From contig NZ_RAWR01000021.1 of assembly GCF_003986945.1 (NCBI RefSeq), positions 1 to 64,000 of the forward strand: 64,000 nucleotides of DNA, read 5' to 3'. The notes beneath the pieces are model-generated. The model was not told the DNA's origin and did not search any database. It worked only from the letters and a program-made list of their open reading frames with translations. Below, in pieces: positions 14,807 to 36,819 of the stretch. The stretch's first letter is position 1. The number at the start of each line of letters is the position of its first letter. The position numbers were made by a program, and so were the translations under genes. The DNA comes from Corallococcus sp. AB018. Lineage in GTDB: Bacteria > Myxococcota > Myxococcia > Myxococcales > Myxococcaceae.

Positions 14807-14859
14807 TGCAAGCGGCCGGCCCCCGACGGGGCCGGCGGGGAATCAGAGGGGACTGCGAA

Positions 14860-18507: not shown

Positions 18508-18897
18508 CTACTTGCGCAGGCTGCCCACGGTGAGGTGCTTGGGCAGCTCCACTTCCGCGGGCACGCCGCCGCCGCCCTCGCCCACCGCCTCCACCTCTTC
18601 GTGGGACGCGCCGGTGGTGATGAGGCGGTACTTCTGCGACGCCTCGCGGTCGTGCTGGGCCTGCTCCGGATCCAACCGCGCGATGAGCTGCCAGAAGAGG
18701 GCCGCGTGCTCGCGCTCCTCGTCCATGACGTGCCGCAGGATGGCCTTCGCCTCCTCATTGTCCGTCGCGTCCAGGTGCGCGGCGTAGAGGTTGATGGCGT
18801 CCAGCTCCGCCTCGATGTTGAGCCGGATGGAGCGGGCCAGTTCGGAGTCCGTCAGCTTCCGGGGCACCAGCGAGTGGAACGGGTTCGTCTGCGGCAT
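18508..18897 (-). CDS. encC: Ferritin-like (rubrerythrin-type) encapsulin cargo protein with C-terminal targeting peptide (EncC-like)
   Basis: Four-helix ferritin-like signature (EAELDAINLYAAHLD...AILRHVMDEEREHAALFWQL). C-terminus PAEVELPKHLTVGSLRK contains the GSL-type encapsulin targeting motif. GAGG ribosome-binding site before the ATG at 18897. Confidence 0.7.
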   Translation of the reverse strand: MPQTNPFHSLVPRKLTDSELARSIRLNIEAELDAINLYAAHLDATDNEEAKAILRHVMDEEREHAALFWQLIARLDPEQAQHDREASQKYRLITTGASHEEVEAVGEGGGGVPAEVELPKHLTVGSLRK

Positions 18898-19053
18898 GAG
18901 GACCTCAGCGACAGGGAGAGTCCCCAACAGGCGAGCGGGCAACGACGTTCCGTCAGGCCGGGCTGGAGGACGTGCGCGAGCATCCGTTCGGTCGCGAGCG
19001 CGGTCAACCGAATCCCGCTGGGGGTGCGTTGCGCGTGAACACCTGCCTCCGCC

Positions 19054-20583: not shown

Positions 20584-20590
20584 AAAAGAC

Positions 20591-20635
20591 TCCGGCCCCG
20601 GGCGCCCCGCTTTCGCGGAGCCCACCGGGGCCGGA
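20591..20635 (-). terminator. Putative rho-independent terminator of groEL2
   Basis: Inverted repeat TCCGGCCCCGG ... CCGGGGCCGGA with a structured loop. On the minus strand it is followed by CTTTTTC. Confidence 0.5.
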
Positions 20636-20668
20636 AACCCTACGAAGCTACGGAGCCGTTACGTCGGC

Positions 20669-22360
<1,692 letters not shown>

Positions 22361-22387
22361 TTAGCACTCGGCCATGTCGAGCGCCAA
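22361..22387. promoter_or_regulatory. CIRCE-like HrcA operator upstream of groEL2
   Basis: TTAGCACTC-N9-GAGCGCCAA versus CIRCE consensus TTAGCACTC-N9-GAGTGCTAA. First half perfect, second half 7/9. About 50 bp upstream of the groEL start. Confidence 0.6.
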
Positions 22388-22491
22388 CATAAGGGCCGCA
22401 TCGACGATGTCAACGGAAAGGGGCAGCCGTGTGGGCCTGAGGACGCCTACTGGCCCGCCCGGGTGGGGGGCCGGGCCGCCTTGGGAAGGCC

Positions 22492-22848
22492 CTACTCCGC
22501 GAAGCGCACGAGGTTGAGCAGCTGCCCCATGTCCAGGGGCTTCTGCAGGGTGATGGCGACGCCCTTGCGCAGGCCCCGGTCGGAGATGTTGGCGTCCGTG
22601 CTGGCGGTCATCATCAGGACGGAGATGCGCTGGAAGCGGGGGTCCGCCTTCAGCATCTCCGTGAAGTGGATGCCGTCCAGGTGGGGCATCAGGTAGTCGG
22701 TGATGACCAGCCCCACGGGGTGACGCTCCATGATGTCCAGGGCCTGGAGCGCGTCCGACGCCGAGAACACGGTGTAGCCATGCATCTCCAGGTAGCGAGA
22801 GAGCATGGTGCACAGCTCGTAATCGTCGTCGACGACCAGGATGTTCAC
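22492..22848 (-). CDS. Single-domain response regulator (CheY-like)
   Basis: ILVVDDDYELC...LVITDYLMPHLDG...LQKPL. Confidence 0.85.
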   Translation of the reverse strand: MNILVVDDDYELCTMLSRYLEMHGYTVFSASDALQALDIMERHPVGLVITDYLMPHLDGIHFTEMLKADPRFQRISVLMMTASTDANISDRGLRKGVAITLQKPLDMGQLLNLVRFAE

Positions 22849-22936
22849 GGGGTTCGGGCCGAAACGGGGCGCTGGAAGGTAACAGCGACGCCGGTCGTTG
22901 ACAACGCGAAGGACGGCTTCTTAGCTGCCGGCCCGA

Positions 22937-24010
22937 ATGGCGAAGCGCATGGCGAAGCAAGGGGAGGCGCGGGACATGGACGCGCGGCTGGAGGGAGTCG
23001 CGGACGCCTTCGAGGCGCGGGACTTCGAGGCCGCGCTCACCAGCGCCGACGCCCTGCTCCGGGACGTTCCGGACTCACCAGAAGCCCTGCACTACCGGGC
23101 CGCCGCGCTGGTGGAGGTGGGACGCCTGGAGGACGCGGGCAAGGCCTATGGCGCCGCCCTCAAGATGGCCCCGGAAGACCTGGAGATCCTCTTCGGCGCG
23201 GCGGAATTCCTCGTGTGCCGCACCGGCGAGGACCGCGAGGCGGTGGAGGAAGGGCTGGAGTGGTGCGGCCGCGGGCGGAAGCTGGCGCAGCGGGCCGATG
23301 ACGTGGAGCTCGTCTACGAGTTCCTCCTCCTGGAGGGCATGGGCCTCAACCAGCTGGGGGAATGTGAGTCCGCGCTGAAAATCCTGGACCAGGCGCTGAC
23401 GCACATGCCGCGCTCGACGGACGCGCAGCTGGAGCGGGGCATCGCGCTGTTCGAGTTGTGCCGCTTCGCGCCCGCGCAGGAGGCCTTCGAGCGGGTGTTG
23501 AAGGACGCGCCGGACGAGGCCTGGGCGCACCACTACCTGGGGCTGGTCGCGGAGCGGCGCCAGGATGCGAAGGAGGCGAAGAAGCGCTTCTCCCGGGCGC
23601 AGGCGCTGGCCCCGGAGGAGCTGCCGCCGCCGGTGGCGCTGGAGGAGGCGGCGTTCGACCGCGCGGTGGAGGACGCGATGCGCGCCCTGCCCTCGCAGGT
23701 GAAGCAGTACATGGACAACGTGACGCTGGCGGTGGAGGACCTGCCGTCGGATGAGGACCTGCTGGGTCAGCAGCCGCCACTGTCACCGTGCATCCTGGGG
23801 GTGTTCCGGGGCACGCCCGTGGGCGAGCGCAGCGTGATGGACGCGGCGGATCACTTCCCGCCCTCCATCGTGCTGTACCAGAAGAACCTGGAGCGCTTCG
23901 CGCGGACCCGCGAGGAACTCATCGAACAGATTGGCATCACGGTGATGCACGAAGTCGGTCACTTGATGGGTCTGGATGAAGACGACCTGTGGGAGCGGGG
24001 GCTGGACTAG
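22937..24010 (+). CDS. TPR-repeat protein with C-terminal zincin-like putative metallopeptidase domain (HExxH)
   Basis: Multiple TPR-like helical repeats. C-terminal VMHEVGHLMGLDEDDL resembles the Zincin_1 / DUF1025 minimal metallopeptidase fold. Confidence 0.65.
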   Translation: MAKRMAKQGEARDMDARLEGVADAFEARDFEAALTSADALLRDVPDSPEALHYRAAALVEVGRLEDAGKAYGAALKMAPEDLEILFGAAEFLVCRTGEDREAVEEGLEWCGRGRKLAQRADDVELVYEFLLLEGMGLNQLGECESALKILDQALTHMPRSTDAQLERGIALFELCRFAPAQEAFERVLKDAPDEAWAHHYLGLVAERRQDAKEAKKRFSRAQALAPEELPPPVALEEAAFDRAVEDAMRALPSQVKQYMDNVTLAVEDLPSDEDLLGQQPPLSPCILGVFRGTPVGERSVMDAADHFPPSIVLYQKNLERFARTREELIEQIGITVMHEVGHLMGLDEDDLWERGLD

Positions 24011-24030
24011 CGCCGTTCTCCCCTGCCCTG

Positions 24031-24333
24031 ATGCGCGCCATGCATGCATGGACGAAGCTGGGGCTGATGGCGGTGCTGGGTCTGACGGGCTGTCTGGGCG
24101 ACGACGACGAAGAGCCGCGCACGTGTCCGCAGGTGGTGGTGTTCGCGCGCTCGGACAGCGAGACGTGCCAGTCCTTCCCGACGCCGTGTGACGTGCCGGA
24201 GGGGTACGTCGAGTGCTGCGGCGGCCTCTTCGGGGGCTGCGCGGGGAACGTGTCCGGGAACACCTGCGTGGATGATCCGTCCGACACGTGCCAGCCCGGG
24301 GGCAGCGCGGACTGCCCGGGCATCTGCCAGTAG
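24031..24333 (+). CDS. Small cysteine-rich lipoprotein (about 100 aa, 11 Cys)
   Basis: Lipobox LGLTGC followed by acidic DDDEE and a Cys-rich body (CPQ..CQSFPTPCDVPEGYVECCGGLFGGCAG..C..C..CPGICQ). Confidence 0.45.
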   Translation: MRAMHAWTKLGLMAVLGLTGCLGDDDEEPRTCPQVVVFARSDSETCQSFPTPCDVPEGYVECCGGLFGGCAGNVSGNTCVDDPSDTCQPGGSADCPGICQ

Positions 24334-24336
24334 GCG

Positions 24337-26736
24337 TCAGGCGGCGCGCGAGCCCATGTCCTCGAAGTAGGCGCGGCGGGCTCGGGCGCAGGTGGGGCAC
24401 TGCCACTGCACCAGGGTGAGGTGGCGGTCGCCCAGGACGACGGCCTCGTGGCGGAGCGACTCCCGTGGGGCCTCGCTGGTGGCTCCACAGGCGCAGCGCA
24501 GCCGGCCCAGCGTGGACAGCAGCTCCTGGGGGCTGGTGATGGGGATGGCGGTTCCTGCGCTGTCGCCCCGGTGGTCCGCGTCGAACTTGCGTGCAAAGGC
24601 GCGGCGCCGGCCCCAGGCGCGGCCCTTGCGCCAGAGCGCCACCGGGCCGCCCTGCGCGATGACGAACCACAGCACGAGGCACGTCGCGATGACGCCCAGG
24701 AGGATGGCACCCGCCTCGCCGGACGGAACGGATGAGGCCTGGTCGCGGGCGGCCCGGCTCCTGAGTTGGATGGCGTAGCCGCGCTGGGCCTCGGTGGCGC
24801 GCACGGCCTTCACGTACTCGGCGATGCGCTCGGGCGGGACCGAGTCCGCGGTGCTGCGATAGCTGTAGTCGAGCAGCAGCGTCTTGCCTTCGGCGCGGGT
24901 GTCGGCCACGAAGCGGAAGGCCGGACCGTCCACGACCTCGTACTCCGTTTTGACGGGGGGCAGCTCGCCGGCCTTCAGCGTGATGCGGTGGCGGGCGAAG
25001 ACGGGGTGCTCCACCTCCAGCGGGAAGGCGCGGTGGGAGTAGTTCGGCACGGAGAGGTGCTGGCGCAGGCCATGCGCGCGGAACTCCCGGCGACCGTCCG
25101 AGGTCCAGAAGTCCTCGATGCGGTAGTGCTCTTGCGTGACGAGCACGTTCGTCACGGTGTCGTCGTCCACCGACATGGGCTTCGCGATGGAGATGTCCGC
25201 GTCCGTCTTCGCGTAGTAGTTGAAGTAGAGGCGGGACACCTCGGACAGGGACGTGCCCGCGAGCGCGCGGCGCATGGAGTTGGCGTCCGCCCCCGTGCGC
25301 GTGGTGACGACGTCGAGTGTCGCGGCCCCGTCGCGGCCCATCGCGACGTAGGTCTCGTCCACGAAGAGGGAGGGCTCCGTCAGCGTGGGCGTGGGGATGA
25401 CGGAGAGCGCCGTGGTGGCGGGGGCGACGAGGAGGGCCCGGCCGTAGGAGGGCGGCTCGTAGCTTTCCAGCCCGCCGCGCTCCAGCGTCGCCGTGGGATC
25501 CACCCACAGCTCGCGGCCGGCCACGGTGGCATGGACGATGACGTGGTTGAACGCGGTGGCGGTGGGACGCAATCCGTCCAGAAGCTGCGTGAGGTCCGTG
25601 CTCACGAGCGCCGGCTGCGCGTCGATGCCCAGCCCCTTGAGGAGCGACACCAAGAGGAGCGACTTGTCCTTGCAGTCGCCGAAGCGGCGCTGGAGGACCT
25701 CGTCGGGCGGATGGGGCTGGTGGGAGTTGGGGCCCATCTCGATGCCCAGGTAGCGCACCTCGTCCTGGACGAAGCGAAGCGCGGCGAGGAAGCGAGCCTC
25801 CGGGGTGGGCTCCTTCGACAGCCGGCGGACCTCCTGCTCCAGCGACTTCGAGCGGGCGGGCATCTGGAACAGCGTGGAGGCCCAGCGCGCGACGTCGTTC
25901 CAGTCCTTGTATTCGCTGAACTGGATCCACGGGTAGACGGGCTGCCAGCCGGGGACGTTGTCCTCGTGGCGGACCGCGGGCACGTGGTGGCGCTCCAGGA
26001 TGATTTCACGCTCGCCGTTCAGCATCGACTCCGAGCGCGACAGGCCCGGCGCGGCGAAGTCCCGGATGAAGAGCGTGCGCCCCCGCCCTTCCGGCCACAG
26101 CAGCCGGTAGGCGAAGTGGACCACGGGATAGGAGTGGCCCACGCCGACGACGTCGGAGAAGCGTCCGCCAAAGACGGGGTTGGCGCCTTCGAAGGAGTAC
26201 GCGACCTCCACGGTGTCGCCCACGCGCACGTCGCGGAGGAAGGGCACCACGGAGAGGTTGCCGTTGTAGAGCCGGTTCTGGAGCTCGGTCTCCTGCTGGA
26301 TGACGCGGGCCTCGGCGGGCTGGAAGACGTCCTCGCGGCGGCCATCGCGGATGCGCCAGATGCCGTGGACGGTGAGCTTCTGGTACGTCGGATCGAAGCG
26401 GAACTGGATGTCCGTGACGCGGTCGATGCCCCGCGGCGAGAGGACCTTCTGGGCCGAGTGCAGGTAGTGCACGCGCGACGGGCCGGACACGCGCACCTGT
26501 TCCTCGATCAGCAGCCGGGAGACGCTGGTCTCCTCCTCGCCCTCGGGCGTCGGGCCGGGGTCTGGAGGAATGGGAAGCGGCTTCACCCACGCGGCGGGAG
26601 GCCCAACGCGGAACGGCCTGGCGTTCGTCGCCGCCGGTGCTGCCCCCGCGCTCAAGGACAGACACAGACACAGCAGCAGGATGGACACCGGAAGGAAGCC
26701 CGGTGCCAGGAGGACGGAACGGAAGGTTCGGCGCAT
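24337..26736 (-). CDS. DUF3857 / transglutaminase-like domain protein with C-terminal TM helix and cytoplasmic Cys4 zinc-ribbon
   Basis: Signal peptide. Transglutaminase core motif RRFGDCKDKSLLLVSLLKGLGI. TM segment AILLGVIATCLVLWFVIA. C-terminal CACG...CPTC. Confidence 0.7.
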   Translation of the reverse strand: MRRTFRSVLLAPGFLPVSILLLCLCLSLSAGAAPAATNARPFRVGPPAAWVKPLPIPPDPGPTPEGEEETSVSRLLIEEQVRVSGPSRVHYLHSAQKVLSPRGIDRVTDIQFRFDPTYQKLTVHGIWRIRDGRREDVFQPAEARVIQQETELQNRLYNGNLSVVPFLRDVRVGDTVEVAYSFEGANPVFGGRFSDVVGVGHSYPVVHFAYRLLWPEGRGRTLFIRDFAAPGLSRSESMLNGEREIILERHHVPAVRHEDNVPGWQPVYPWIQFSEYKDWNDVARWASTLFQMPARSKSLEQEVRRLSKEPTPEARFLAALRFVQDEVRYLGIEMGPNSHQPHPPDEVLQRRFGDCKDKSLLLVSLLKGLGIDAQPALVSTDLTQLLDGLRPTATAFNHVIVHATVAGRELWVDPTATLERGGLESYEPPSYGRALLVAPATTALSVIPTPTLTEPSLFVDETYVAMGRDGAATLDVVTTRTGADANSMRRALAGTSLSEVSRLYFNYYAKTDADISIAKPMSVDDDTVTNVLVTQEHYRIEDFWTSDGRREFRAHGLRQHLSVPNYSHRAFPLEVEHPVFARHRITLKAGELPPVKTEYEVVDGPAFRFVADTRAEGKTLLLDYSYRSTADSVPPERIAEYVKAVRATEAQRGYAIQLRSRAARDQASSVPSGEAGAILLGVIATCLVLWFVIAQGGPVALWRKGRAWGRRRAFARKFDADHRGDSAGTAIPITSPQELLSTLGRLRCACGATSEAPRESLRHEAVVLGDRHLTLVQWQCPTCARARRAYFEDMGSRAA

Positions 26737-26914
26737 GGCGGAAGGGCGCTCATCATGGAGCCCGGATGACGCGCCGGGCAAGGCGCCCCCTGGGACACCG
26801 GGCGAGCGGCCCCGCTTCATTCACCAGTGAAAACCGCCATGCAGGCCAAGCCTGGAATTGCCGTGACACGGGCTAGGGTTCCGGCCATCGGTTGGAAGGC
26901 CCAGGAGGCTGGCG

Positions 26915-27883
26915 ATGGTCAACGTGAGGCAGGTCGCGACGCGGCTGAAGAGTGCGTTCCTGGCGGACCCGGAGCGCTTCTATACGAACGAGACAGGGGC
27001 CTGGGTGGCGGGGATGCCGGCGCCGAGCGACATCCGGGTGACGACGGGCCGGGAGCCCTTCTGGATCAACCTGGGCTACTGGAAGCACGTGGAGAAGGTG
27101 GACGACGCCAACGTGGAGCGCGTGGGGGAGCTGTTCCGGTCCGCGCAGGCGGAGATGGCGCGCCTGTTGGCGAGGACGGCGAAGCTGGGGCCCGGGGATG
27201 CCGTCTTGGACTGCGGCTTCGGGTACGCGGACCAGGACCTGCTGTGGGCGGAGGAGTTCAAGCCCGCGAGCATCGTCGGGGTGAACATCACGCCGAACCA
27301 GGTGAAGGTGGGCCGGGAGCGCGTGAAGCTGACGGGGCTGGAGGGTGTGGTCCGGCTGGAGGTGGGGAGCGCGACGGCGCTGCCGGGGCCGGAGGGAGCG
27401 TTCGACGTGGTGTTCGCGCTGGAGTCCGCGATGCACTTCCGGATGAGGCAGGACTTCCTGCGCGAGGCCTTCCGGGTGCTGAAGCCGGGAGGCCGGCTGG
27501 TGATGGCGGACATGGCGCAGAAGACGGACCGTGAGGCTGGAGCCGGACTCCGAGCACGGCTGCGCTACCGCTACTGGCGGGGGCTGATTGCCTTCCCGGA
27601 GGAGAACGTCTGGTCGACGGAGCGCTACCGGGAGGAGCTGCGGCGGGCGGGGTTCCAGGACGCGAAGGTGGAGTCCATCGCGGACGACGTGTACCCGGCG
27701 GTGAACACGGCGCTGGTGGCGCTGCGGGGCATAACGCAGCTGGAGCGCAATCCGGGGAGCACGTCGCTGCACCAGGTGCGCGCGGACGTGCACAAGGCGA
27801 TGCGGATGACACCGGAGCAGCTCCAGTGGCCCGCGCTGTTCAACTGCGACGAGTACGCCGTGGTGTCCGCGCGCAAGCCGTGA
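26915..27883 (+). CDS. Class I SAM-dependent methyltransferase
   Basis: Motif I VLDCGFGYADQD. Motif post-I/II region DVVFALESAMHF. VLKPGGRLVMAD. Confidence 0.8.
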   Translation: MVNVRQVATRLKSAFLADPERFYTNETGAWVAGMPAPSDIRVTTGREPFWINLGYWKHVEKVDDANVERVGELFRSAQAEMARLLARTAKLGPGDAVLDCGFGYADQDLLWAEEFKPASIVGVNITPNQVKVGRERVKLTGLEGVVRLEVGSATALPGPEGAFDVVFALESAMHFRMRQDFLREAFRVLKPGGRLVMADMAQKTDREAGAGLRARLRYRYWRGLIAFPEENVWSTERYREELRRAGFQDAKVESIADDVYPAVNTALVALRGITQLERNPGSTSLHQVRADVHKAMRMTPEQLQWPALFNCDEYAVVSARKP

Positions 27884-27925
27884 CCGTGGTTGACGGACTG
27901 GGGCGGAGCGGCGGTAATCGGAAGC

Positions 27926-28024
27926 GGTAGGGCCTCCGGACCTGGTGGCCGGCCCGGTCTTCAAAACCGGTGAGGGGCTGCGAGAGCAGTCCCTGGCGAG
28001 TTCGATTCCCGTGCCCTACCGCCA
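27926..28024 (+). tRNA. selC: tRNA-Sec (anticodon UCA), bacterial 8/5-type with long variable arm
   Basis: 8-bp acceptor stem GGTAGGGC/GCCCTACC, discriminator G, encoded CCA. Anticodon stem CCGGT/ACCGG with loop CTTCAAA (U33, UCA, A37). Long extra arm GAGGGGCTGCGAGAGCAGTCCCTG. GTTCGATTCC T-loop. Folded by eye only. Confidence 0.7.
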
Positions 28025-28090
28025 CACCTCTGCAATCCGGTTAGCGATTCATCGTCACCAGCCAGCAGCTACCAAGAGGTCGACGCACAA

Positions 28091-28480
28091 ATGCCACAGG
28101 ATAAGGAAAGTGGCGCAACTGCCGCTCAATGGGGCCGTGATACAGCTCGACAGCTCGCCGAAAAGCTAGGAGCCAAGCCACTCAGCAACATCTCGAATGA
28201 GGCGCTACTCGACGACGAATTGATTGTGATCAAGTGCGCCAAACCTGACACCGACACCGTCGGTGTCACCTTCAAGATGCTTGCACGCGTGTCCCGCGTA
28301 TTCGGTGCTTTCCAACAGAGCGACGGCAGCTTTGACATTTGGTCACTACCGTCCAGCATTTATTCCAAACATACCCGCGAGTCGGCCGGTCGCGGCTCAT
28401 CCGCTGGAAAGTATGGGCTCGTACGACGAGACGCGTTCCTCTCACTTGGAGTTCACATCGGGACAGTCCGGCTCCCCTAG
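28091..28480 (+). CDS. Hypothetical protein in low-GC islet
   Basis: ORF in compositionally atypical region. No recognisable domain. Confidence 0.35.
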   Translation: MPQDKESGATAAQWGRDTARQLAEKLGAKPLSNISNEALLDDELIVIKCAKPDTDTVGVTFKMLARVSRVFGAFQQSDGSFDIWSLPSSIYSKHTRESAGRGSSAGKYGLVRRDAFLSLGVHIGTVRLP

Positions 28481-28839
28481 TATGCCGAACTAGATTTGAA
28501 CGACTGACTTGGGCCTGACGATCAGCATCGCCCCCAGTCACTGTGAACCCATGGCAATGGAGAGTCGCTTGGCTCTCGGGAAAACAGCACGGCGGCTGGT
28601 CCTGTGGGCTATCGTGGGACCTCTGCTGGCAGGCGCGTTTGGACAGACCGGATGCTCCCATGGAAGCAATCTAGTCATTGGGCGCACTGCACCTGAACAC
28701 TTCCGGCACGCCGTCGGCCCGCACGCTCGACGACAGCCGGTGACCACCCGGAGCGCTTGTCAGTTCTACCTGGTATTACCCGACCTTGCGCCACCGATGC
28801 GCTCCCGAGCAAAGAGCGCCAGCGCCAGGAGGGCTCCGC

Positions 28840-30192
28840 ATGCTGCCACGATGGTCGATTCCCCTACTGATCGTGATGCTGGCCGGATGCAGCGGCACCA
28901 CGAAGTCCGTGCGCCTACACACGGGCCACGGCGACCCCATCGTCCTCACCCCACGCAGCGGCGATGCCGCGCCGGTGGAGTTGGACGAAGACGACTTCGT
29001 TGAAGTCGTAGCAGTGCTCGCCCGGAACGTGCGGCCGTCCACTCATCCCCAGGAAACGGCCCGGCGGTTTTTCGAGATGGATCCGCGCAGCGGTTCGTAC
29101 CTGTACGAGCCGCGCAGCCACCGTGTCATCCCGCTGGGACCGGGCGAACACCTGGACGGTGATCTCCCCTCGACAGAGGTGGATCTGACGCGCGCATACC
29201 TGCGCTGGTGCGAGCGAACGAGCAAACCCGGCGATTGCCTGCGCCTCCTGGTGGAGAGCCCTACTGTCACCGGAGATGGCCGTTACGCCCTGGCCATGGC
29301 CTTGGCCCAAGGCGTCGTGCGGGACGAGATGATGGACGCCTTCAAGGAGATGGCTGATCCCCAGGCCATGATGGCTGCGGTTCTTTGGACGTGGACCACG
29401 TACTGCATCTTGCTCGCGGTGCCCGAGCCTTTCTCGAAGGGCGTGGCCGCCGTGATGACCGCCTCCCTCATTGCCTACGTGGGGGTCGATACGTTCTGGA
29501 GCCTCATCTTGGGCTTCAAGCAGCTGGTGGAGGAGGCGGAGCGGGCCACCACGTTTGACGAACTCCGCGAGGCGGGTGAGCGCTACGGCAAGGTCATGGG
29601 CCGCAACGCGGCGCGCGCGTTCGCCATGTTGGCAACGGCCGCCCTTGGGAACACGGCGGCGGGGCTGGGGTCGAAGGTGCCAATGCTCCCAGGCGCCGCG
29701 CAGGCGGCGGTCCAGGCTGAAGCGCAAATGGGCATCAGGCTCGCGGCGGTCGCGGACGTGGGAACGGTGGCCGTGAGCGCCGAGACCGTCACCATCGCCC
29801 TCGCGCCCGGCGCGGTGGCCATGGGGGCCAAAGCCACGGGCGGCAGCGCCTCCGCCAAGGCGCGTCCCTTGGGCTACAGGGCCTGGAGCTCGTTCAGTGG
29901 TTTCAAGAAGGCCATGGGCCCGGCGGGCAAGAACAAGGAGTGGCACCACATCGTCGAGCAAACTCCGGGCAACGTGAAGCGCTTCGGCCCCCAGGCCCTC
30001 CACAACACCGAGAACCTCATCCCACTGGACAAGATCCTGCACACCGACGTCAGCGCGCTCTACTCGTCGATCCGGCGTAGTATCACCGGCTCGCCATTGA
30101 CCGTGAGGCAATGGTTGAGCACGCAGTCCTACGAGGCCCAGCGTGACTTCGGGCTGCTGGCCATGGAGAACGTGGCGAAGGGGGTCTGGTGA
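28840..30192 (+). CDS. Lipoprotein polymorphic toxin with C-terminal WHH (HNH-superfamily) predicted nuclease domain
   Basis: AGGAGGG ribosome-binding site 8 nt upstream. Lipobox IVMLAGCSG. C-terminal KEWHHIVEQTPGNVKRFGPQALHNTENLIPLDKILHTD carries the W-H-H signature and the downstream H/N pattern of WHH toxin domains. Immediately followed by an overlapping small gene (ATGA). Confidence 0.6.
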   Translation: MLPRWSIPLLIVMLAGCSGTTKSVRLHTGHGDPIVLTPRSGDAAPVELDEDDFVEVVAVLARNVRPSTHPQETARRFFEMDPRSGSYLYEPRSHRVIPLGPGEHLDGDLPSTEVDLTRAYLRWCERTSKPGDCLRLLVESPTVTGDGRYALAMALAQGVVRDEMMDAFKEMADPQAMMAAVLWTWTTYCILLAVPEPFSKGVAAVMTASLIAYVGVDTFWSLILGFKQLVEEAERATTFDELREAGERYGKVMGRNAARAFAMLATAALGNTAAGLGSKVPMLPGAAQAAVQAEAQMGIRLAAVADVGTVAVSAETVTIALAPGAVAMGAKATGGSASAKARPLGYRAWSSFSGFKKAMGPAGKNKEWHHIVEQTPGNVKRFGPQALHNTENLIPLDKILHTDVSALYSSIRRSITGSPLTVRQWLSTQSYEAQRDFGLLAMENVAKGVW

Positions 30193-30542
30193 TGACGTTG
30201 GAGAGATTGGTCGAGCAGTTCGCCCTGAACGTGGCGGCACAGACCGAGGCCATCTTCCGGGGAGATGCCAAGACGGGAAACAAGCACGCCAGGAAGTACG
30301 GTGCAGCCGTCGATAAGCTCCTGGCCCATGGAAACGCAGGACGTGATGCCCTCCTCGTCCTGCTCAAGCATGAGCGCATGGATGTGCGTGTCATGGCCGC
30401 CGCCCATCTGCTCCGCTACCGGACGGCCGAAGCGAAGGCGGTTCTGGAGGAAGCCGCCAAGGGCAAGGGGCTCGTTCCCTTTGAAGCCGGGCAGGCATTG
30501 AAGCGCTGGGAAGAAGGAACCTGGGCGCTCGATCCAGAGTAG
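30189..30542 (+). CDS. Putative immunity protein (DUF2019-like, HEAT-like helical repeats)
   Basis: 117-aa helical protein translationally coupled to the toxin gene (MTLERLVEQFALNVAAQTEAIFRGD...). Resemblance to DUF2019 immunity-type proteins is from memory. Confidence 0.5.
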   Translation: MMTLERLVEQFALNVAAQTEAIFRGDAKTGNKHARKYGAAVDKLLAHGNAGRDALLVLLKHERMDVRVMAAAHLLRYRTAEAKAVLEEAAKGKGLVPFEAGQALKRWEEGTWALDPE

Positions 30543-30552
30543 CCCGCCTCGG

Positions 30553-31161
30553 ATGGACGACCTCATGCCGACGCGGTTCTTCAAGTTGACCGATGATGTG
30601 TACCTCTCCGGCCGGTGGGAGCTGGGGCATCCTCTCGATCAGGAAGGGCGCAAGCTCTATGACCCGTGGCAGTTCAGGATCGGGCAGCGGGCTCACTCGG
30701 ACGAGCGCATCAGGATCCCCATCAAGATCTCCGGCAAACCGCTCGACTATTCCCACGCGGCATTCAGCATCCCCGTCGTCCACGCCCGGGCGGCCTCCTT
30801 CTTCACCGAGCTGGCACCCGACGACATGAAGCTCATCCCGGTGGAGATCGACTCCCAGCCCGCTCAGCACTTCATCCTCAACGCCACCCGGCTGGTGAAG
30901 TGCATCGACGATGCAGCGTGCGAGGAGGTGCGTTACTGGACCCCGGAGGACGGGATGCCCGAAAAGGTGGGTACGTACTCCTCCGTGTCCGGGATGCGCA
31001 TCGACCCGGCGAAGGTGGAAGGCGCCAAGGTGTTCCGCACCTGGGGCTGGACCGTGGCCTTGATCGTGTCCGAGGAGATCAAGGAGGCCCTGGAGCGCGC
31101 GGTCATCACCGGCACGAAGTTCACGGACGTGACCGGCCCCGGTGCAGCCAATGCCCCCTAA
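30553..31161 (+). CDS. Hypothetical protein, possible second or orphan immunity protein (Imm11-like?)
   Basis: 202-aa ORF directly downstream in the same islet. Conserved Trp positions (RTWGWTVALIVSEE). Family assignment is tentative. Confidence 0.45.
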   Translation: MDDLMPTRFFKLTDDVYLSGRWELGHPLDQEGRKLYDPWQFRIGQRAHSDERIRIPIKISGKPLDYSHAAFSIPVVHARAASFFTELAPDDMKLIPVEIDSQPAQHFILNATRLVKCIDDAACEEVRYWTPEDGMPEKVGTYSSVSGMRIDPAKVEGAKVFRTWGWTVALIVSEEIKEALERAVITGTKFTDVTGPGAANAP

Positions 31162-31310
31162 CCCCTGCCGTCCCCACCCGCGTACCCAAGCTGTACCCAA
31201 GATGAACGGACGCGGGTGGACCTTTACGGACTCGCGGTCCACCCCGCGCCAGAGGGAAACGGGCCACCCCTCAATCCTCCCGGGCACCTCGCGGATCGGT
31301 GTGGCGGGGC

Positions 31311-31376
31311 TTCAAAACCGGTGAGGGGCTACGAGAGCAGTCCCTGGCGAGTTCGATTCCCGTGCCCTACCGCCAA
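31311..31376 (+). repeat. Partial duplicate of the tRNA-Sec 3' half (att-like direct repeat)
   Basis: cttcaaaaccggtgaggggct(a)cgagagcagtccctggcgagttcgattcccgtgccctaccgcca matches 27959..28024 with one mismatch. Confidence 0.75.
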
Positions 31377-31426
31377 TGCGTTCCAGGGGTTACGCCCCCC
31401 GTACTGCCGCCTTCGCAGCATCTTCG

Positions 31427-32491
31427 TCACCGATGGGCACTGTTCGAGCCGAGCGTCTGCTCGACCCAACGGTGCCAGGCCGCCGGCTCGTCACCCAGGT
31501 CCCGCCCCGCCAGGATGGCGAGCACCTTGCGAGCAGGCTCGGCATCGGTCTTCTGCTGCATTCCAGCCATCTCCACCAGCACCGCGCCCGCCTTGTCGAG
31601 AATCTGCCGCTGATGGGCGGCGCCTTCGGTTTCCACGATGTGCACGAGCGCCCAGGCTGCCTTGTTGCGGTCGGTCTCGAGCGGGTACCAGAGCGCTTCG
31701 AGCACGGGCTCCAGCGGGATGATGACCCGCGGCTGTCCCTCCTGCATCGTTCCCAGCAGGCGCAGCGCCTCGTTGCGCACACCCTCGTAGGGGTCGCGCA
31801 CCGACGGGAGAACGAGCTTCACCAGTTGCTCGCGTGAGTTGATGTAGGGCAGGAGCATGACCGTGGCCATTCGCTTGGAGTCGTTGCGATCCTCACGCAG
31901 CACCCGCACCAGCGTGTCGAGATTGCGGGGAACACCATCCATGAAGCGCTGCTCCAGCGGCGCGAGCTCGGGGTGGTCGAATCCTCCATGGCAGTTGAGG
32001 GCATGGCACTTGCTCTTGCCGTACTCGGGGACAGCCCCTTCCCTGCTCAGCTTCCAGTAGGCCGTCTGGTATTCATCCCAGGCCGTGAGGAGGCCCTCCG
32101 GCTCCGGGATATCGCCCTGCGGCGCGGGTGAAAAGGGCATACGCCACTCATCTCCGGCATCGACCAGATCCACCGTCACCCGGAACGTCCGCGTCGGCGG
32201 GTAGGCCACCATCGAGTACCTGCAGAACGCGAACTTGTAGGCCGCCAGGAGCCGCGGCTTGCTCTCCATGAGGTACGGCGTGAACTCCCCCTTCTCGAGG
32301 TTGAAGCGCGCGCCGGGCGCAGGCATCCCAATGACCTCCAGCAGCTTGCCCTTGGGCACCTTGCGTGAGCCGAACACCTCCACGCCTTCGAACACGTAGA
32401 CCGGGCTGGGCTGGACCGGCGATGCGGCCTGATGGACAGGCGTTGCACAGGCCGTGAGCAGTGCAAGACCCAAGAGGACAAAGCGCTGCAT
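31427..32491 (-). CDS. Lipoprotein with C-terminal HEAT/ARM-like helical repeats
   Basis: Lipobox LALLTAC. No catalytic motifs seen. Confidence 0.6.
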   Translation of the reverse strand: MQRFVLLGLALLTACATPVHQAASPVQPSPVYVFEGVEVFGSRKVPKGKLLEVIGMPAPGARFNLEKGEFTPYLMESKPRLLAAYKFAFCRYSMVAYPPTRTFRVTVDLVDAGDEWRMPFSPAPQGDIPEPEGLLTAWDEYQTAYWKLSREGAVPEYGKSKCHALNCHGGFDHPELAPLEQRFMDGVPRNLDTLVRVLREDRNDSKRMATVMLLPYINSREQLVKLVLPSVRDPYEGVRNEALRLLGTMQEGQPRVIIPLEPVLEALWYPLETDRNKAAWALVHIVETEGAAHQRQILDKAGAVLVEMAGMQQKTDAEPARKVLAILAGRDLGDEPAAWHRWVEQTLGSNSAHR

Positions 32492-32721
32492 GGTTCTCCC
32501 TCTCCGCGCCGAGCAGGCGCAGGGATCTCAACGATGGTTGCGCGGGATGTGGCTGGTAAAGCGAACTCCAGGCTAACGCGCATCCGGGCCACCCTCGCAT
32601 GAAATTCTCCCTGCCCCAGGAAGCGCCCTGGCGCTGCCCACCTGTCACGCGCCCGCGACACCTCTGGGTTCAACGTCATCCCTTCAGGGTGGATGCGTGC
32701 TCCGGACGATCCCGATCACCG

Positions 32722-32789
32722 ATTCCGGAGCAAGCCGAACACCGGCTCCGGGACAAGCCGAACACCAATTCCGGAGCAAGGCGAACACC
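32722..32789. repeat. Three tandem 23-bp direct repeats (ccggagcaagccgaacacc-type) in the upstream region of the lipoprotein gene
   Basis: ttccggagcaagccgaacacc / ggctccgggacaagccgaacacc / aattccggagcaaggcgaacacc at a 23-bp period. Confidence 0.5.
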
Positions 32790-33069
32790 TGTAGCAGGGT
32801 GAGGCACCGGGGCCTGAGCAGCGCGGAGGCCCGCGCGGACTGAAGGTCCGGCCGGAACGTTGACGACGCTGGACAGAGCGCCGACCACGCCGCCACCTTC
32901 CAGCCCTTGACCTACCGCGGCCCGCTCTGGACTTTCCAGAACGGGCCGTGGTGCTTCGACGTCATGTCATGACTCAACAGGAGCAGTCATGGAGCAGCTA
33001 TAGCGATCGCTGGTCATGTGGTGTGGGTGGGAAAGGCGCGTTGAAGACAGCCGGCGTTGAATGCTGGCG

Positions 33070-34878
33070 TCATCCCTCCGCGTGGCGTGAACCCTTCGCG
33101 CCCTCCTGCATGCATGCTCGGTTCACGAAGACGCGGAATCCCCCGCGTGCGCCCTCCGGCAACTCCGCGCTCAAGTCCAAGGCCTGCAGCGCGATGTCCC
33201 GCTCCATTTGCACGAGCCGGGGGTCTTCACGCTCCTCCGGGCCGAAGACGAAGGCGCAGTACTCGCCGGACGCGATGCTCGCCACGAGCGTCTCCGGCCG
33301 GAGTTCCGTGTAGAAGGACTGCCAGTAGCGACCATTGCGAAACAGGTAGAGCTGAAGAACCTTGTACCGGGGCGAGATGAAGCTCTCATGCCCGGGCGGC
33401 AGTGGTTCCAGATAGGGGCGAAGGATCTCCGAGATCTCCTTGTACGGTGGTTGAGGCGCAGTGAGCTCGTACGCCCCGAAACCAGCCAGTGACAGCGAGG
33501 AGAGGCCACCGATGAGCGCCGTCGCTCGCGCGCGCTCGAGGCGAGCCGCCGCATACGCCAGGAGCCAGGCGCCCCCCACCCCGAGCGTGTGCGCGCCAAC
33601 ATAGACAGGCGTGATGTCATCGCGCTTCAGCCCCCGAGCATGAGCCGCCCCGATGAGGAGCACCGCCGCGGCCGAGAAGACGCCCGCGACCCTGAGGGCT
33701 CGACGGCCCGATGCCCCCCGTGGTTCGAGGGTGCCCTCCCCGGCAAGGAGCGCCGAAGCACCAAGCCCGGCCAGCCCATAGAGGAATGGCAAGACTCCCA
33801 GGATGTAGAGCGACTCCTTGATGGCGGGGTGCGAGAGGGGAACCAGGCTTGCGAGCCCGAAGCCGATGGCGCCGAAGAGCCCGGCCGCGGTCGGCGCACG
33901 CCGCTTCAAGGCGGGGAGCGCAGCCAGAAGGAGGGGGCAGAGGAAGAAGTGCTCCCGGTAGAGGATCGCCGGGTAGTACCAGAAGGGATGACTCCATTCC
34001 GTGGGCACGCCCGCCCCAGCCAGCTTCGACCCTCCGATGCTCTGCCCCAGGAAGGGTGCGAAGTAGACCTGGGTGAGCCAGAGGGCGACATCCGTGGGTG
34101 ACCGCAGAGCGACGAAGGCGATGTGAAGGGACGCCGTGGCGAGAAAGCCGGCGGCGATGCAGGCGACAGGAACCAGCGCCCATTGACGCCGCTGGAGACG
34201 CACGCTGGCAAGGAGCCCTAGCGAAGCCAGCACGAAGGGGGTGACGAGCCACAGCTTCGTCAAGAAGCCAAGGCCGAGGCATGCGCCACCCAGCAGGGAG
34301 TGCCAATTCCTCCCGGTGAGCTCTCCTCGCGCAATCCAGTACGTGCCCGCCATGCCCCACGCCACGAGGACAGGCTCGGCCTCCATCAGCCGGAATTGCC
34401 ACAGGACGGCAGGAGAGAGCGCGAGCAGGAGCGTCGTCAGGAGCGCCGCACGACGCTCCCACAGGGCGACGAGCCGGTAGGTGAAGCAGAGGGTGGCGGC
34501 CAGCGCCGCGAATGAGACGAGCCCCATGGCTTCGGGCCGGCCGCCCAGGGGACAGCCTCCGAGTGCGAGGAGCACCGAGTGAAATGGAGTGTTGCCGATG
34601 CCTGGCAGATCGAAGCCAACCCAATCCTCCGAGCCGCCAGGGATGTACGAGGGCCGCACCACGAGCGCCAGCGAACGGCACATGTTGAGGGCCATCGTGC
34701 CATTGACGCCCTCGTCACCTGTTTCGATACGCTTGAAGACGACGCCGCGCGCGAAGGCCAGGGCAAGGGAGGCAATGACCACCACACGGACGACGAAGCG
34801 CAGGCGATTGTCGTCATCACGCCGCGGCCCAAGCGGCTGGACGGGGGGAAACCACGAGCCTGGCCAGAGAAGTCTCAT
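33070..34878 (-). CDS. GT39/GT83-family membrane glycosyltransferase (ArnT / PMT-like)
   Basis: Polytopic membrane protein, more than 10 TM segments, with architecture similar to ArnT/PMT_2. Start chosen at MRLLWPG (34878). Confidence 0.7.
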   Translation of the reverse strand: MRLLWPGSWFPPVQPLGPRRDDDNRLRFVVRVVVIASLALAFARGVVFKRIETGDEGVNGTMALNMCRSLALVVRPSYIPGGSEDWVGFDLPGIGNTPFHSVLLALGGCPLGGRPEAMGLVSFAALAATLCFTYRLVALWERRAALLTTLLLALSPAVLWQFRLMEAEPVLVAWGMAGTYWIARGELTGRNWHSLLGGACLGLGFLTKLWLVTPFVLASLGLLASVRLQRRQWALVPVACIAAGFLATASLHIAFVALRSPTDVALWLTQVYFAPFLGQSIGGSKLAGAGVPTEWSHPFWYYPAILYREHFFLCPLLLAALPALKRRAPTAAGLFGAIGFGLASLVPLSHPAIKESLYILGVLPFLYGLAGLGASALLAGEGTLEPRGASGRRALRVAGVFSAAAVLLIGAAHARGLKRDDITPVYVGAHTLGVGGAWLLAYAAARLERARATALIGGLSSLSLAGFGAYELTAPQPPYKEISEILRPYLEPLPPGHESFISPRYKVLQLYLFRNGRYWQSFYTELRPETLVASIASGEYCAFVFGPEEREDPRLVQMERDIALQALDLSAELPEGARGGFRVFVNRACMQEGAKGSRHAEG

Positions 34879-35505
34879 TTCCGCCAGGCCCGGGGCAGGT
34901 GGGCACGAGAGTGGAGCCAGTCCTTGCCCCCCCCTACCCTCGCGGTCGGACTGAGCTGAGCCTTCAGAATCCTGCCGAGCAGCCTCAGCGTCCGCAGCAG
35001 CGGCTCCTTCGACTCGTCCTGGTGCGTCTTCTGAGCGGGCGTGCACTTCCGGGTCGCGTCAACCGGCTCCTCCAGGCCCACGTAGGCGCACGCGAAGCGC
35101 TCCGGTGAGAGGAACTCGCCCAGCCACCGTCGCTCCTCGCGCGGAAACCAGGCGGCGAAGAGGCCCCGCATCTTCACGGGCTCCCTCGCTCCATCCTTGA
35201 AGGGACTCATGAAAGAAGGCACGAGCCTGACCGAGCAATTGCCGTTCCAGCCAGCGGCAGCTCAATCCGGGCCTTCGAGTTCCGCTCGTCCGTTTCGGGG
35301 ACGGCCCCTCATTTCGACCCTGGACAGCCGAGACGGGCGACCCTCTCGAGGGAGCGAGCCCTCCTCGATGGACTCTCAATCCGAGACAGCCTGACGTCCC
35401 AGCATGAGACAGCAGGGACAATCAGCCGGCGGTGAGGCCGTGAAGCATGGAGCACGATACCTGCATGGAGGCGCAGGCAGCAGGAAGCACGTGGGACACA
35501 TGTGA

Positions 35506-36696
35506 ATGCGCAAGCCGGTGATTCGCAAGACACTCTCCGAGGAACTGTTCTTCGTCCGCGGCATGAGCCTGATGCTCGTGGTGCTGGTCCATGTGATCGG
35601 CGTGGAGCCCTTCCAGGGAGTGCGCAAGCTCTTCTCCCCGGAGCGAGCGGAGCTCCGGTTCGCCTCGGAGTTCATCCACAGCTTCAACATGGCGGTGATG
35701 ATCATCGGTTCGGGCGTGGCTGTGTCACTCTTCGGCGCGCCGGACAGGTCCTTCCGGGAGTTCGCGCACAAGAAGCTGCGCAAGCTCGTCGTCCCGATGT
35801 TGGTGTGGGCGCCCGTCTTCCTCATTGCCCATGAGCTCACCCAGGCGCGCCCGCGAACACCTGGCGGATGGCTGGCGCTGCTGGGCCGGTTCCCCGCCGC
35901 CTGGTTCCCTCCGTACGCCATCTTCTGGTTCATTCACGCCCTGGTGGGCTGTACCTGTCTGGCGTGGGTGTATCAGCGCATCGTGCCCGCCCGGTACAAT
36001 TGGAACGGACTGAGCTACCTGGCACTGTCCTGGGTGTCTTATGCCGCTGTCGAGTTCCTGGAATCTCCGATGTCTGACATTGGGATGAGATACCTCCGCT
36101 TCATCCTCTTCTGGAACTGCCTCTTCGGTCTGGGAATGAGCCTGTCCCCCTGGCTGGCGCTGGCGCGCACCCGGCTGTCCCAGTTGCCTCTGGCGCTCCA
36201 GGGACTGGTGCCCTCGGGGTTCCTGGGGCTGCTGGTCTCTTTCCATGTCTCGGGGCTCGCGGAGGGGCATCTGGATCCGCGCCTGCTCACGGGGCCGCTG
36301 GGCTTCTGCCTGCAATTCACCCTGGCCTTCTTCCTCCTGGGTGTTGCCCGGAGCCTGGGTGCGACGTGGAAGGGGTTGGCGAGGTGGATTGTCTACCTGG
36401 GCTCGATCAGCATGCCGCTCTACCTCTTCCACATCTATTTCGTGTCCGGAGTGAGGTTGGCTTTGGGGAAGGTGCTGCCAGGAGCGCCGCTCGCGCTGCA
36501 CCTGGCGCTGGGCGTGTTCGGAGGGCTGATGGGGCCCCTGGGCCTCTACCTCCTCCTGGAGAGGAATCGGGCCTTCCGCTGGAGCATCGGCCTGCGTGGT
36601 GTCCCTTTGGACACGCCCGAACTCGGCGCGAATGAGTCCCCTGGCACCCGGCCACCTCGGGTGGAGGCATCGACCATGAAAGGGGCCGACGTATGA
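35506..36696 (+). CDS. Acyltransferase family 3 membrane protein (OafA/YrhL-like O-acyltransferase)
   Basis: Ten-plus TM segments. N-terminal FFVRGMSLMLVVLVH motif typical of Acyl_transf_3. Confidence 0.7.
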   Translation: MRKPVIRKTLSEELFFVRGMSLMLVVLVHVIGVEPFQGVRKLFSPERAELRFASEFIHSFNMAVMIIGSGVAVSLFGAPDRSFREFAHKKLRKLVVPMLVWAPVFLIAHELTQARPRTPGGWLALLGRFPAAWFPPYAIFWFIHALVGCTCLAWVYQRIVPARYNWNGLSYLALSWVSYAAVEFLESPMSDIGMRYLRFILFWNCLFGLGMSLSPWLALARTRLSQLPLALQGLVPSGFLGLLVSFHVSGLAEGHLDPRLLTGPLGFCLQFTLAFFLLGVARSLGATWKGLARWIVYLGSISMPLYLFHIYFVSGVRLALGKVLPGAPLALHLALGVFGGLMGPLGLYLLLERNRAFRWSIGLRGVPLDTPELGANESPGTRPPRVEASTMKGADV

Positions 36697-36819
36697 ACCC
36701 AAATGAAGTGTTGACCATTCGCCAAAATGTTTGTGTTTCAGAGCGGGACGGCCATGCTGGCTGGCTACACCAAAGTTCATGGAGGCCCCCTCTGAGCGCC
36801 TCCATTCCCTGGAGTTGTC

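Follow-up and report, generated by a model that had tools for sequence, protein, structure and literature searches.

A toxin-bearing, integrase-less islet behind the selenocysteine tRNA gene of Corallococcus as a probable remnant of site-specific integration

The stretch analysed here, called the window throughout, comprises 64,000 nucleotides of Corallococcus sp. AB018 (contig NZ_RAWR01000021.1, positions 1 to 64,000). In it, selC, the gene for the selenocysteine tRNA (tRNA-Sec), is followed by an islet holding a small gene (orf129), a gene for a SitA5-family toxin and two immunity-type genes, and then by a second, displaced copy of the 3' part of the tRNA gene (Table 1). We consider it likely that the segment 27959-31375 is an old and decayed, integrase-less remnant of site-specific integration at the selC anticodon loop, similar to a cis-mobilizable element (CIME). 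An earlier reading of the letters alone (the first-pass annotation) had framed the host by way of proteobacteria and Myxococcus; the host is a Corallococcus, of the Myxococcota.

ARAGORN reports a single tRNA in the window, tRNA-SeC (tca), which is the selC gene on the + strand, and the Rfam covariance model RF01852 scores 70.5 bits on 27926-28020 against a gathering score of 47, both in agreement with the tRNA-Sec that the first-pass annotation had placed at 27926..28024. The structure drawn by ARAGORN has 8 acceptor pairs, a T stem of 5 positions with one mismatch, and a long variable arm with a stem of about 8 bp. The gene is 95-100% identical in eight other Corallococcus genomes that have the same methyltransferase-selC adjacency, and this conservation suggests that it is in use. 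Its last 66 nt recur downstream in direct orientation with 65 of 66 positions identical, the sole mismatch being G27979 versus A31330, a change that disrupts a variable-arm pair. The first-pass annotation had noticed this repeat and its single mismatch, although the coordinates it gave for the second copy (31311..31376) are one base off. A 30-mer taken from the repeat has exactly two copies in the 64 kb, where shuffles expect 0.00. Analysed by itself, the second copy gave no tRNA with ARAGORN and only 32.8 bits with the Rfam model, under the gathering score. The repeat begins exactly where the anticodon loop (C-T-TCA-A-A) begins, and the encoded CCA forms its end.

A regenerated tRNA gene (tDNA) and a displaced fragment mark the two ends of the islands described by Islander, among which 'anticodon centered' attP sites form one class (PMC4383910). 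The same pairing is present here, with an intact tDNA and its cognate fragment lying on one replicon in direct orientation and with a core that likewise starts in the anticodon loop. However, Islander islands require an internal integrase gene, and since the islet has none it would be filtered out by that definition. None of the islet ORFs (open reading frames) matched a recombinase or excisionase family in Pfam or NCBIfam, and tblastn with three selC-linked integrases as queries found no match in the window at E<=1e-3. A lenient search (E<=50) inside the islet returned noise only, the best hit (E=0.06) lying inside the sitA5 reading frame. The statement in the first-pass annotation that no integrase or excisionase ORF is present is thus borne out by the family searches as well as by tblastn.

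The locus was compared with fetched loci of other genomes and contigs (L-numbers below), for which one genome per species was scanned with the methyltransferase gene of the left flank. The methyltransferase-selC adjacency is present in Corallococcus (L003-L008, L019 and L020) and is not kept in Myxococcus, Pyxidicoccus and Archangium. Directly after selC, eight different sequences are found among the twelve compared (the window and 11 loci). In C. coralloides KYC2213 (L003), an intact selC is followed at once by a homologue of window 31376-31418, and window 31307-31418 aligns with L003 11042-11152 at 92% identity over 112 nt including the core. From this alignment we read L003 as the empty junction, and its genes further on differ from those of the window. 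The first-pass annotation had envisaged an empty site in which methyltransferase and selC directly precede the lipoprotein gene at 31427-32491. This arrangement was found in no fetched relative, and the evidence for an empty site is instead the 43-nt flank in L003.

The boundary of the repeat also occurs beside integrase genes. The sister strain L001 is 99.6% identical to the window over 11.3 kb from 27959 rightwards, while the 5' half of its tRNA gene is replaced by other DNA. Directly left of its islet, 94 nt separate the gene of a 378-aa tyrosine integrase (phrog_1) from a tRNA fragment beginning at position 34, and behind the integrase stand genes for a RuvC-like protein, a DNA methyltransferase, a family-A polymerase (PolA) and a helicase. 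The right half of L001 therefore reads as a phage-like element, an internal tRNA fragment, the islet and a second fragment. This arrangement indicates that in this species selC remains in use for integration, serving as attachment site with a crossover boundary identical to that of the islet. In L008 and L019 an integrase of 381 aa (PF00589), 44% identical to that of L001, starts about 110 nt after selC. A homologous integrase lies directly after selC in L029, a metagenome contig from a more distant host, and the same integrase is found in Corallococcus sp. CA047B (L028) after a selC fragment, not an intact gene. The displaced fragments begin at tRNA position 34 in L001 and in C. carmarthensis CA043D (L004), and at position 31 according to blastn in L028 and in the metagenome contigs L136 and L099; by eye, all start at CTTCAAAACC. 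With the same boundary beside integrases and the empty junction in L003, the earlier view of the repeat as an integration scar in the 3' part of the tRNA gene holds.

The L008-type integrase family comprises 71 clusters; among the homologues listed, those assigned to an organism all come from myxobacterial genera. Against deposited phage genomes, the integrase reaches no more than about 27% identity across roughly half of the protein, and the phages are unrelated. In UniProt, an entry assigned to 'Archangium disciforme' (Q5ZPC0) shares 93% identity with the selC-linked integrase of Corallococcus; hence the element, or the strain classification, crosses named genera.

Further evidence comes from the right arm, 148 nt in length, which reaches from the Imm11 stop codon to the tRNA fragment. 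It contains two direct repeats of GTACCCAAG at 31182-31190 and 31193-31201 with a spacing of 11 bp, and this 9-mer occurs nowhere else in the 64 kb (0.06 copies expected). Elsewhere among the fetched loci, GTACCCAAG is found in the right arm of L001 and L002 and in the gap between selC and the integrase gene of L008 and L019. In L028 and L029, the corresponding gap behind selC or its fragment holds an 8-mer, GTACCCAA, which has two further, unrelated occurrences at L008 7062 and L003 18170. The same phased GTACCCAAG pair is seen about 100-125 nt upstream of the displaced tRNA-Sec fragments in L136 and L099. With the repeats left out, the right arm is identical to that of L004 at 73 of 99 positions (E=1e-11), and it aligns with that of L136. 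We infer that the GTACCCAAG repeats are putative arm-type binding sites of an integrase; 31162-31375 would then be the attR of a family of elements on which the L008-type integrase acts. The 'decayed or minimal islet' of the first-pass annotation gains support from this conserved arm with its integrase-associated repeats.

L136 and L099 were the only relevant hits among 120 stretches returned by a second metagenome scan with the pattern GTACCCAAGNNNTACCCAAG. The other 118 had no match to tRNA-Sec, integrase or islet proteins and were taken as chance or unrelated. A first metagenome scan with the right-arm pattern gave no match, nor did a scan of viral contigs for the tRNA 3' 30-mer and the right-arm pattern. 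A short ORF after the GTACCCAAG repeats (starting MNGRGW) was considered as a 5' remnant of an integrase gene and rejected, because substitutions in the L004 homologue scatter over all codon positions and the conservation looks non-coding.

Table 1. Features of the selC locus in the window, with coordinates, strand and basis or remark.
Feature	Coordinates	Strand	Basis or remark
selC, intact tRNA-Sec, anticodon UCA	27926-28024	+	ARAGORN, Rfam RF01852; probable regenerated integration target
Left (attL) copy of the 66-nt core	27959-28024	+	tRNA positions 34-99
Left end of the islet, P'-arm side, non-coding	28025-28090	.	56% GC
orf129, small protein with predicted PD-(D/E)XK fold	28091-28480	+	GC 0.567, GC3 0.61; AlphaFold2/Foldseek
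Spacer, presumed promoter region of the toxin operon	28481-28839	.	blastn boundaries
sitA5, polymorphic lipoprotein toxin of the SitA5 family, 450 aa	28840-30192	+	NCBIfam NF050093
sitI, DUF2019/HEAT-like, 116 aa, probable cognate immunity gene	30192-30542	+	PF09450
Extra ('orphan') immunity gene of the Imm11 family, 202 aa	30553-31161	+	PF07791
Right arm of the islet (putative P arm of attR) with two GTACCCAAG repeats	31162-31309	.	motif count and homology
attR core, displaced 66-nt 3' fragment of tRNA-Sec	31310-31375	+	tRNA positions 34-99; 1 mismatch to the live gene
Native 3' flank of selC (43 nt)	31376-31418		displaced 3.35 kb by the insertion; basis L003 comparison

The islet also stands out in composition. 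GC content has its minimum of 0.557 at 28050-28499, against 0.69 for the whole window, which confirms the low GC (about 55%) reported for the left end in the first-pass annotation. GC at third codon positions (GC3) is 0.61-0.89 in the islet genes and 0.93-0.94 in the core genes of the left flank, with orf129 as an outlier within the islet. The left end, 28025-28090, is conserved solely where the same islet occurs (L002, L001, L023 at 92% and L027 at 89%), is unrelated to the DNA after selC in other species, and contains no GTACCCAAG motif. From about 28706-28749 onwards, blastn finds homology to the DNA upstream of sitA5 cassettes in other genomes (L022, L023, L027 and L024). A scan for consensus promoters and terminators gave sites not above shuffle expectation.

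The distribution of the islet suggests that the insertion is old. In a C. carmarthensis genome (L023), it is found at selC with 94% nucleotide identity for orf129 and 93% for sitA5, the flanking methyltransferase gene being 92% identical. A soil contig (L027) has the same islet at selC, where the tRNA-Sec gene is 90% identical to that of the window. Since L023 and L027 share the islet in its integrase-less form, the integrase was lost before these lineages split. The insertion thus appears to be shared by several lineages at a divergence similar to that of the flanking gene. According to the first-pass annotation, relatives with the same genes at this site would speak for an ancestral arrangement. 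Such relatives exist in part (L023 and L027), yet insertion is not refuted by them. If the arrangement were native, a local partial duplication of selC would have arisen with no integrase involved, and the genes between the copies would be ordinary chromosomal ones. The lack of an integrase and the presence of the same genes at selC in several lineages, with divergence like that of the methyltransferase, are as such a reading would have them. Nevertheless, the boundary of the repeat lies exactly at the anticodon loop and recurs beside integrases in L001 and L028, and also in L004, L136 and L099. An integrase-associated motif in the right arm, the atypical GC3 and the eight different sequences after selC among twelve are likewise at odds with it. 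The shared boundary together with the empty junction of L003 largely refutes a native origin, which we find scarcely credible.

Divergence between closely related strains was mapped along the locus. The window and the sister strain L002 differ at 16 positions in 18840-24528 (0.28%) and at 58 in 24529-27912 (1.7%), then at none in 27913-33497, with 1 difference at 33498. Between the window and L001, there is 1 difference in 27959-33497 and there are 43 in 33498-39229 (0.75%). A near-identical block of about 5.6 kb is thereby delimited, which starts at selC and ends 2.1 kb past the right repeat, and the boundary of a recombination tract coincides with selC. The divergent segment left of selC, 24529-27912, contains a transglutaminase/DUF3857 gene and the methyltransferase gene. 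Because the shared block is not bounded by att sites, its recent spread would be due to homologous recombination or to a sweep of a larger piece, not to an integrase. The same map bears on another explanation, namely that this strain recently acquired a complete element and lost the integrase within its own lineage. A nearly perfect fragment is what one would expect from such a history, as is an islet with 0 differences to L002 and 1 to L001 while the flanks differ. However, the same integrase-less islet at the same site in L023 and L027 (87-94% identity) points to an earlier loss, and the near-identical block extends beyond the right repeat; a recent acquisition is therefore very improbable.

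Whole islets also appear to be replaced. L004 and L023 are conspecific, with flanks 98.5% and 95% identical, yet they carry different islets. That of L004 is 3.55 kb long and integrase-less; its right arm is homologous to that of the window, and its fragment is degenerate. Its cargo (L004 11111-14632) consists of a 115-aa ORF, a ParA/AAA_31 ATPase and two unknown proteins of 128 and 249 aa. PADLOC gave no match for this cargo, which could be an uncharacterised defence or partition module, and three TTGGTAC-like repeats are seen just after selC in L004. In hotspots that lack recognisable mobile elements, homologous recombination at the core genes that flank them has been found to be frequent (PMC5635113). 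The suggestion of the first-pass annotation that cargo was exchanged by homologous recombination is supported by the replacement between L004 and L023 and by the block that overruns the right repeat. Partial losses are seen as well. In L023, most of Imm11 is missing together with the right arm, the fragment and 35 nt of the flank; the C. coralloides genome CP034669.1 (L022) has lost the right arm, and in C. aberystwythensis (L006) a sitI remnant alone lies beside selC.

The preferred interpretation, an integrase-less remnant, would require the following events. An element with a tyrosine integrase would have recombined into the anticodon loop of selC. It would have supplied a new 3' half of the tRNA and pushed the original half 3.35 kb downstream; with the new half supplied, selC would have stayed intact. 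The integrase and the other mobility genes would subsequently have been lost, and both attachment sites and the cargo kept. To account for the islet's left end, we assume that another element integrated and that a deletion then fused the two. The islet would now move between strains mainly inside a larger block, by homologous recombination.

A possible parent element is suggested by joining L028 and L022, which overlap over a kinase-HTH block with 93.7% identity. L022 has the order kinase, HTH, HTH, kinase, DUF2381, three tandem sitA5-sitI cassettes, tRNA fragment and chromosomal flank, with the fragment truncated to tRNA positions 55-99. The composite from these two genomes would be about 18 kb in length and would run from selC through the integrase, HTH_17, DUF3854/DUF5906, kinases and DUF2381 to a sitA5 cassette at the right arm. 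In L022 (5779-10777), the duplication junction joins the first 88-92 codons of Imm11 to the upstream part of the next sitA5, and the third toxin gene has an internal deletion with its immunity gene retained. The element in L028 encodes a DUF3854/DUF5906 primase-like protein (13091-15415) and an HTH_17 protein that may be an excisionase, and beside the integrase a gene at 11204-12301 matches the candidate defence family PDC-M34B (E=1e-17). In the region L028 1-9889, a tRNA-Sec fragment of positions 31-99 precedes this element, with housekeeping-like genes (folD-like, dihydroorotate dehydrogenase and adenosine deaminase) on its left, a layout that suggests a rearrangement or another joined element.

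Several observations weigh against a remnant of this kind. None of the fetched sequences shows a parent element that has both ends and matches the left end exactly. The left end (28025-28090) and orf129 are unrelated to the integrase-proximal arm of L008-type elements and carry no GTACCCAAG; owing to this mismatch (28025-28480 versus the L008-type arm), a simple one-step internal deletion is insufficient. The tandem structure of L001 was deduced from its right half, and the nuclease class of the toxin from a motif and weak matches only. Moreover, the 66-nt fragment has a single change though the islet seems older than the species splits, so that gene conversion, selection or a more recent origin is needed; gene conversion with the live selC, 3.3 kb away, is one possibility.

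CIMEs and their accretion have been defined and modelled with examples including the islands of Streptococcus thermophilus related to ICESt1 and ICESt3 (PMC5704250). By analogy the islet may be regarded as CIME-like, since it likewise keeps the attL and attR cores and has no integrase, and L001 likewise shows an element, an internal att site, the islet and attR. However, the incoming element in L001 looks prophage-like rather than conjugative, and it entered the regenerated tRNA gene (attL), where the model in that review names the attR end. No conjugation or relaxase genes were seen in the fetched parts of the related elements (L008, L019, L028, L029 and L022). The likeness raises the question of whether the islet is instead a functional non-autonomous mini-element, with att sites kept for a selC-specific integrase acting in trans (L008 type) or in cis (as in L001). 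The two 9-mers of the right arm are perfect and phased, the arm is conserved in the window, L136, L004 and L099, and the core is nearly intact (65/66). In addition, L004 offers a second integrase-less islet of similar size, with a homologous right arm, at the same site with other cargo, L001 is a natural tandem with an integrase-bearing element, and reports from other bacteria describe such tandems being mobilised in cis (PMC5704250). On the other hand, the block shared by three strains overruns the right repeat by 2.1 kb and fits homologous exchange, L023 and L022 retain the cassette after the right site was lost or truncated, and the left arm is without GTACCCAAG. The integrase of L001 has arm repeats of a different sequence (GTGCGTTACCG), and the 64-kb window encodes no integrase. 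We hold a functional mini-element to be improbable.

The toxin gene was identified by SitA5_escort (NF050093), which scores 386.6 bits against a cut-off of 160 over residues 9-274. A signal peptide with the lipobox L-A-G-C (MLPRWSIPLLIVMLAG-C) was read off the translation, not called by a dedicated predictor. In the C-terminal domain, an alignment of homologues shows an invariant WHH...N...N...H pattern. The HNH_2 match is weak (E=0.18), a PDB sequence search of the domain gave no match, and Foldseek matches (Cap5 and Vvn) were non-significant; the domain is probably a nuclease of the HNH/beta-beta-alpha-Me type. SitA5 has 1087 homologues, and those among the 120 matches listed are all myxobacterial or metagenomic. 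The identical toxin is found in L001 and L002, of which L002 is arranged as in the window. The exact protein, WP_120576600.1, is recorded from Corallococcus sp. AB030 and related unclassified Corallococcus, and its 90% cluster is that of C. exiguus.

The start codon of sitI overlaps the sitA5 stop (TGATG), and its product matches PF09450 with 27.1 bits (cut-off 23.3). In all cassettes examined (L001, L002, L022 three times, L023, L024 and L025), the gene directly behind that of the SitA5 homologue encodes a DUF2019 protein, and sitI is probably the cognate immunity gene. The Imm11 gene (PF07791, 46.7 bits against a gathering score of 22.1) would encode 198 aa if it starts at ATG 30565, as annotated in the sister genomes. 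Intact copies are limited to the window, L001 and L002; L022 and L023 have truncated ones, and the cassette of M. xanthus has none. These NCBIfam and Pfam matches agree with the toxin and immunity-type cargo proposed in the first-pass annotation, and PADLOC gave no match for the islet proteins.

The sitA5-sitI pair of M. xanthus is 86.8% identical and lies in another context with no tRNA nearby, its homology to the window being limited to 28828-30544. Toxins of other genomes are identical to that of the window at 88% in Pyxidicoccus, 85% in Stigmatella, 80% in C. interemptor and 79% in C. coralloides DSM 2259. These values depart from the taxonomy and hint at horizontal movement, a comparison that is confounded by paralogy. 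SitA families are toxins of outer membrane exchange, and delivery dependent on TraA/TraB is known for tested SitA5 alleles (PMC8546572); by analogy, the toxin of the window may be active and delivered by the same route. The sitAI and sitBAI cassettes of myxobacteria were described by Vassallo et al. in 2017 (PMC5562445) and 2021 (PMC8546572) and are often on mobile DNA. The cassette at selC resembles them in its lipoprotein signal, escort domain, C-terminal toxin domain and downstream immunity gene in one operon. It differs in its apparent vehicle, a tRNA-Sec-targeted integrase element or a remnant of one, and in the second, unrelated immunity gene Imm11.

The first gene of the islet, orf129, matched no family in Pfam, NCBIfam, PHROG or PADLOC. 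Six clusters of homologues with 47-91% identity over the full length indicate that it is a real but rare gene. Its AlphaFold2 model (pLDDT 87.5, pTM 0.81) was compared by Foldseek with PvuII, NhoI and the N-terminal domain of Eco15I (probability ~1.0, TM 0.57-0.62) and with Hjc (probability ~1.0, TM 0.37-0.47), and the predicted fold is PD-(D/E)XK, similar to restriction endonucleases and Hjc. The invariant residues include D4, E37, K48 and Q75, and a clear (D/E)-X-K triad is not evident, nor can activity be inferred. A homologue with 48% identity is encoded on a metagenome contig with no nearby tRNA-Sec (L026 871-1257), beside a 598-aa Band_7 protein, and hence orf129 cargo is not tied to selC.

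In related elements, the toxin cassette occupies the same position just inside the right arm (L136 and L022), and on account of this shared position we suggest that the selC-targeting element family carries sitA5 cassettes as right-end cargo. L136 has the order DUF2381, SitA5, three small genes, right arm, fragment and IS5 transposase, and its SitA5 shares 68% identity over the escort domain but has a C-terminal domain of another kind. The SitA5 region of this metagenome contig lies on the reverse strand at 2973-5624, one of the three small genes encodes a DUF3969 protein, and the IS5-family transposase stands just outside the displaced tRNA fragment. A stronger proposal would be that the tRNA-Sec-targeted integrase elements of Corallococcus form a family of dedicated sitA5 carriers, with the cassette always just inside the right arm, and that integrase-less remnants such as this islet and that of L004 remain exchangeable through this arm, by an integrase acting in trans or, once a prophage has joined them as in L001, in cis. 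We think this rather unlikely; if true, selC would be a cassette-swapping site for social-identity and possibly defence genes.

In Enterobacteriaceae, tRNA-Sec is a recurrent insertion hotspot for selC-linked pathogenicity islands such as LEE (the locus of enterocyte effacement) and SHI-2. The Corallococcus locus shares with these the target tRNA and the alternative cargo by strain, but it belongs to Myxococcota, carries a social toxin cassette in 3.35 kb and has no virulence genes. The kinds of element found here are known ones, namely the island signature at a tRNA gene, the CIME-like remnant, sitAI on mobile DNA and the turnover of hotspots by homologous recombination. Novelty lies in the tRNA-Sec hotspot in Corallococcus, the myxobacterial integrase family that targets it together with its arm motif, and sitA5 as right-end cargo. 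A literature search for selC islands in Myxococcus or myxobacteria found nothing relevant in the searchable library. SitA toxins decide which myxobacterial cells may cooperate, and published accounts of how sitAI cassettes spread do not go beyond generalities ('often on mobile elements'). The locus offers a concrete vehicle and site, a tyrosine-integrase family that appears to target the tRNA-Sec anticodon loop. Several stages of turnover can be followed at this one site, from the integrase-bearing element through the integrase-less remnant to a phage-like element abutting the left repeat, along with right-site loss, cassette triplication and whole-islet replacement between conspecific strains. 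No new biology is required, and the locus can serve as a clear case study whose att sites lend themselves to testing.

Some further features were seen around selC. An exact sequence look-up of the flanking methyltransferase gave no record, and its assignment as a selenoprotein methyltransferase was disregarded, the NCBIfam score being 63.9 bits against a cut-off of 460. Downstream of selC, genes resembling those of contractile-tail sheath and tube are present in C. aberystwythensis (L006 17850-20868) and C. exercitus AB043A (L020 8064-10185); judged from the N-terminal sequences only, these may be part of an extracellular contractile injection system. Rightwards of selC, the window (28000-64000) has GC3 of 0.78-0.90, compared with 0.91-0.97 in the core genes on the left, and is rich in glycosylation and envelope-type genes (PMT-like and acyltransferase). 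In C. carmarthensis and C. coralloides, a different glycosyltransferase cluster lies beyond the islet, and selC may border a large species-specific variable region. Two paralogous lipoproteins of 1408 and 1242 aa are encoded at 36820-41046 and 41678-45406, with nearly identical N-termini and internally repeated DNA, and the homologous region of L001 is annotated with Kelch/beta-propeller repeats. Finally, an imperfect tandem unit of 23 nt (TCCGGAGCAAGCCGAACACC) is found at 32699-32789, as three overlapping 45-nt copies with 23-nt spacing, in the intergenic region between a HEAT-repeat lipoprotein gene and a PMT-like gene.

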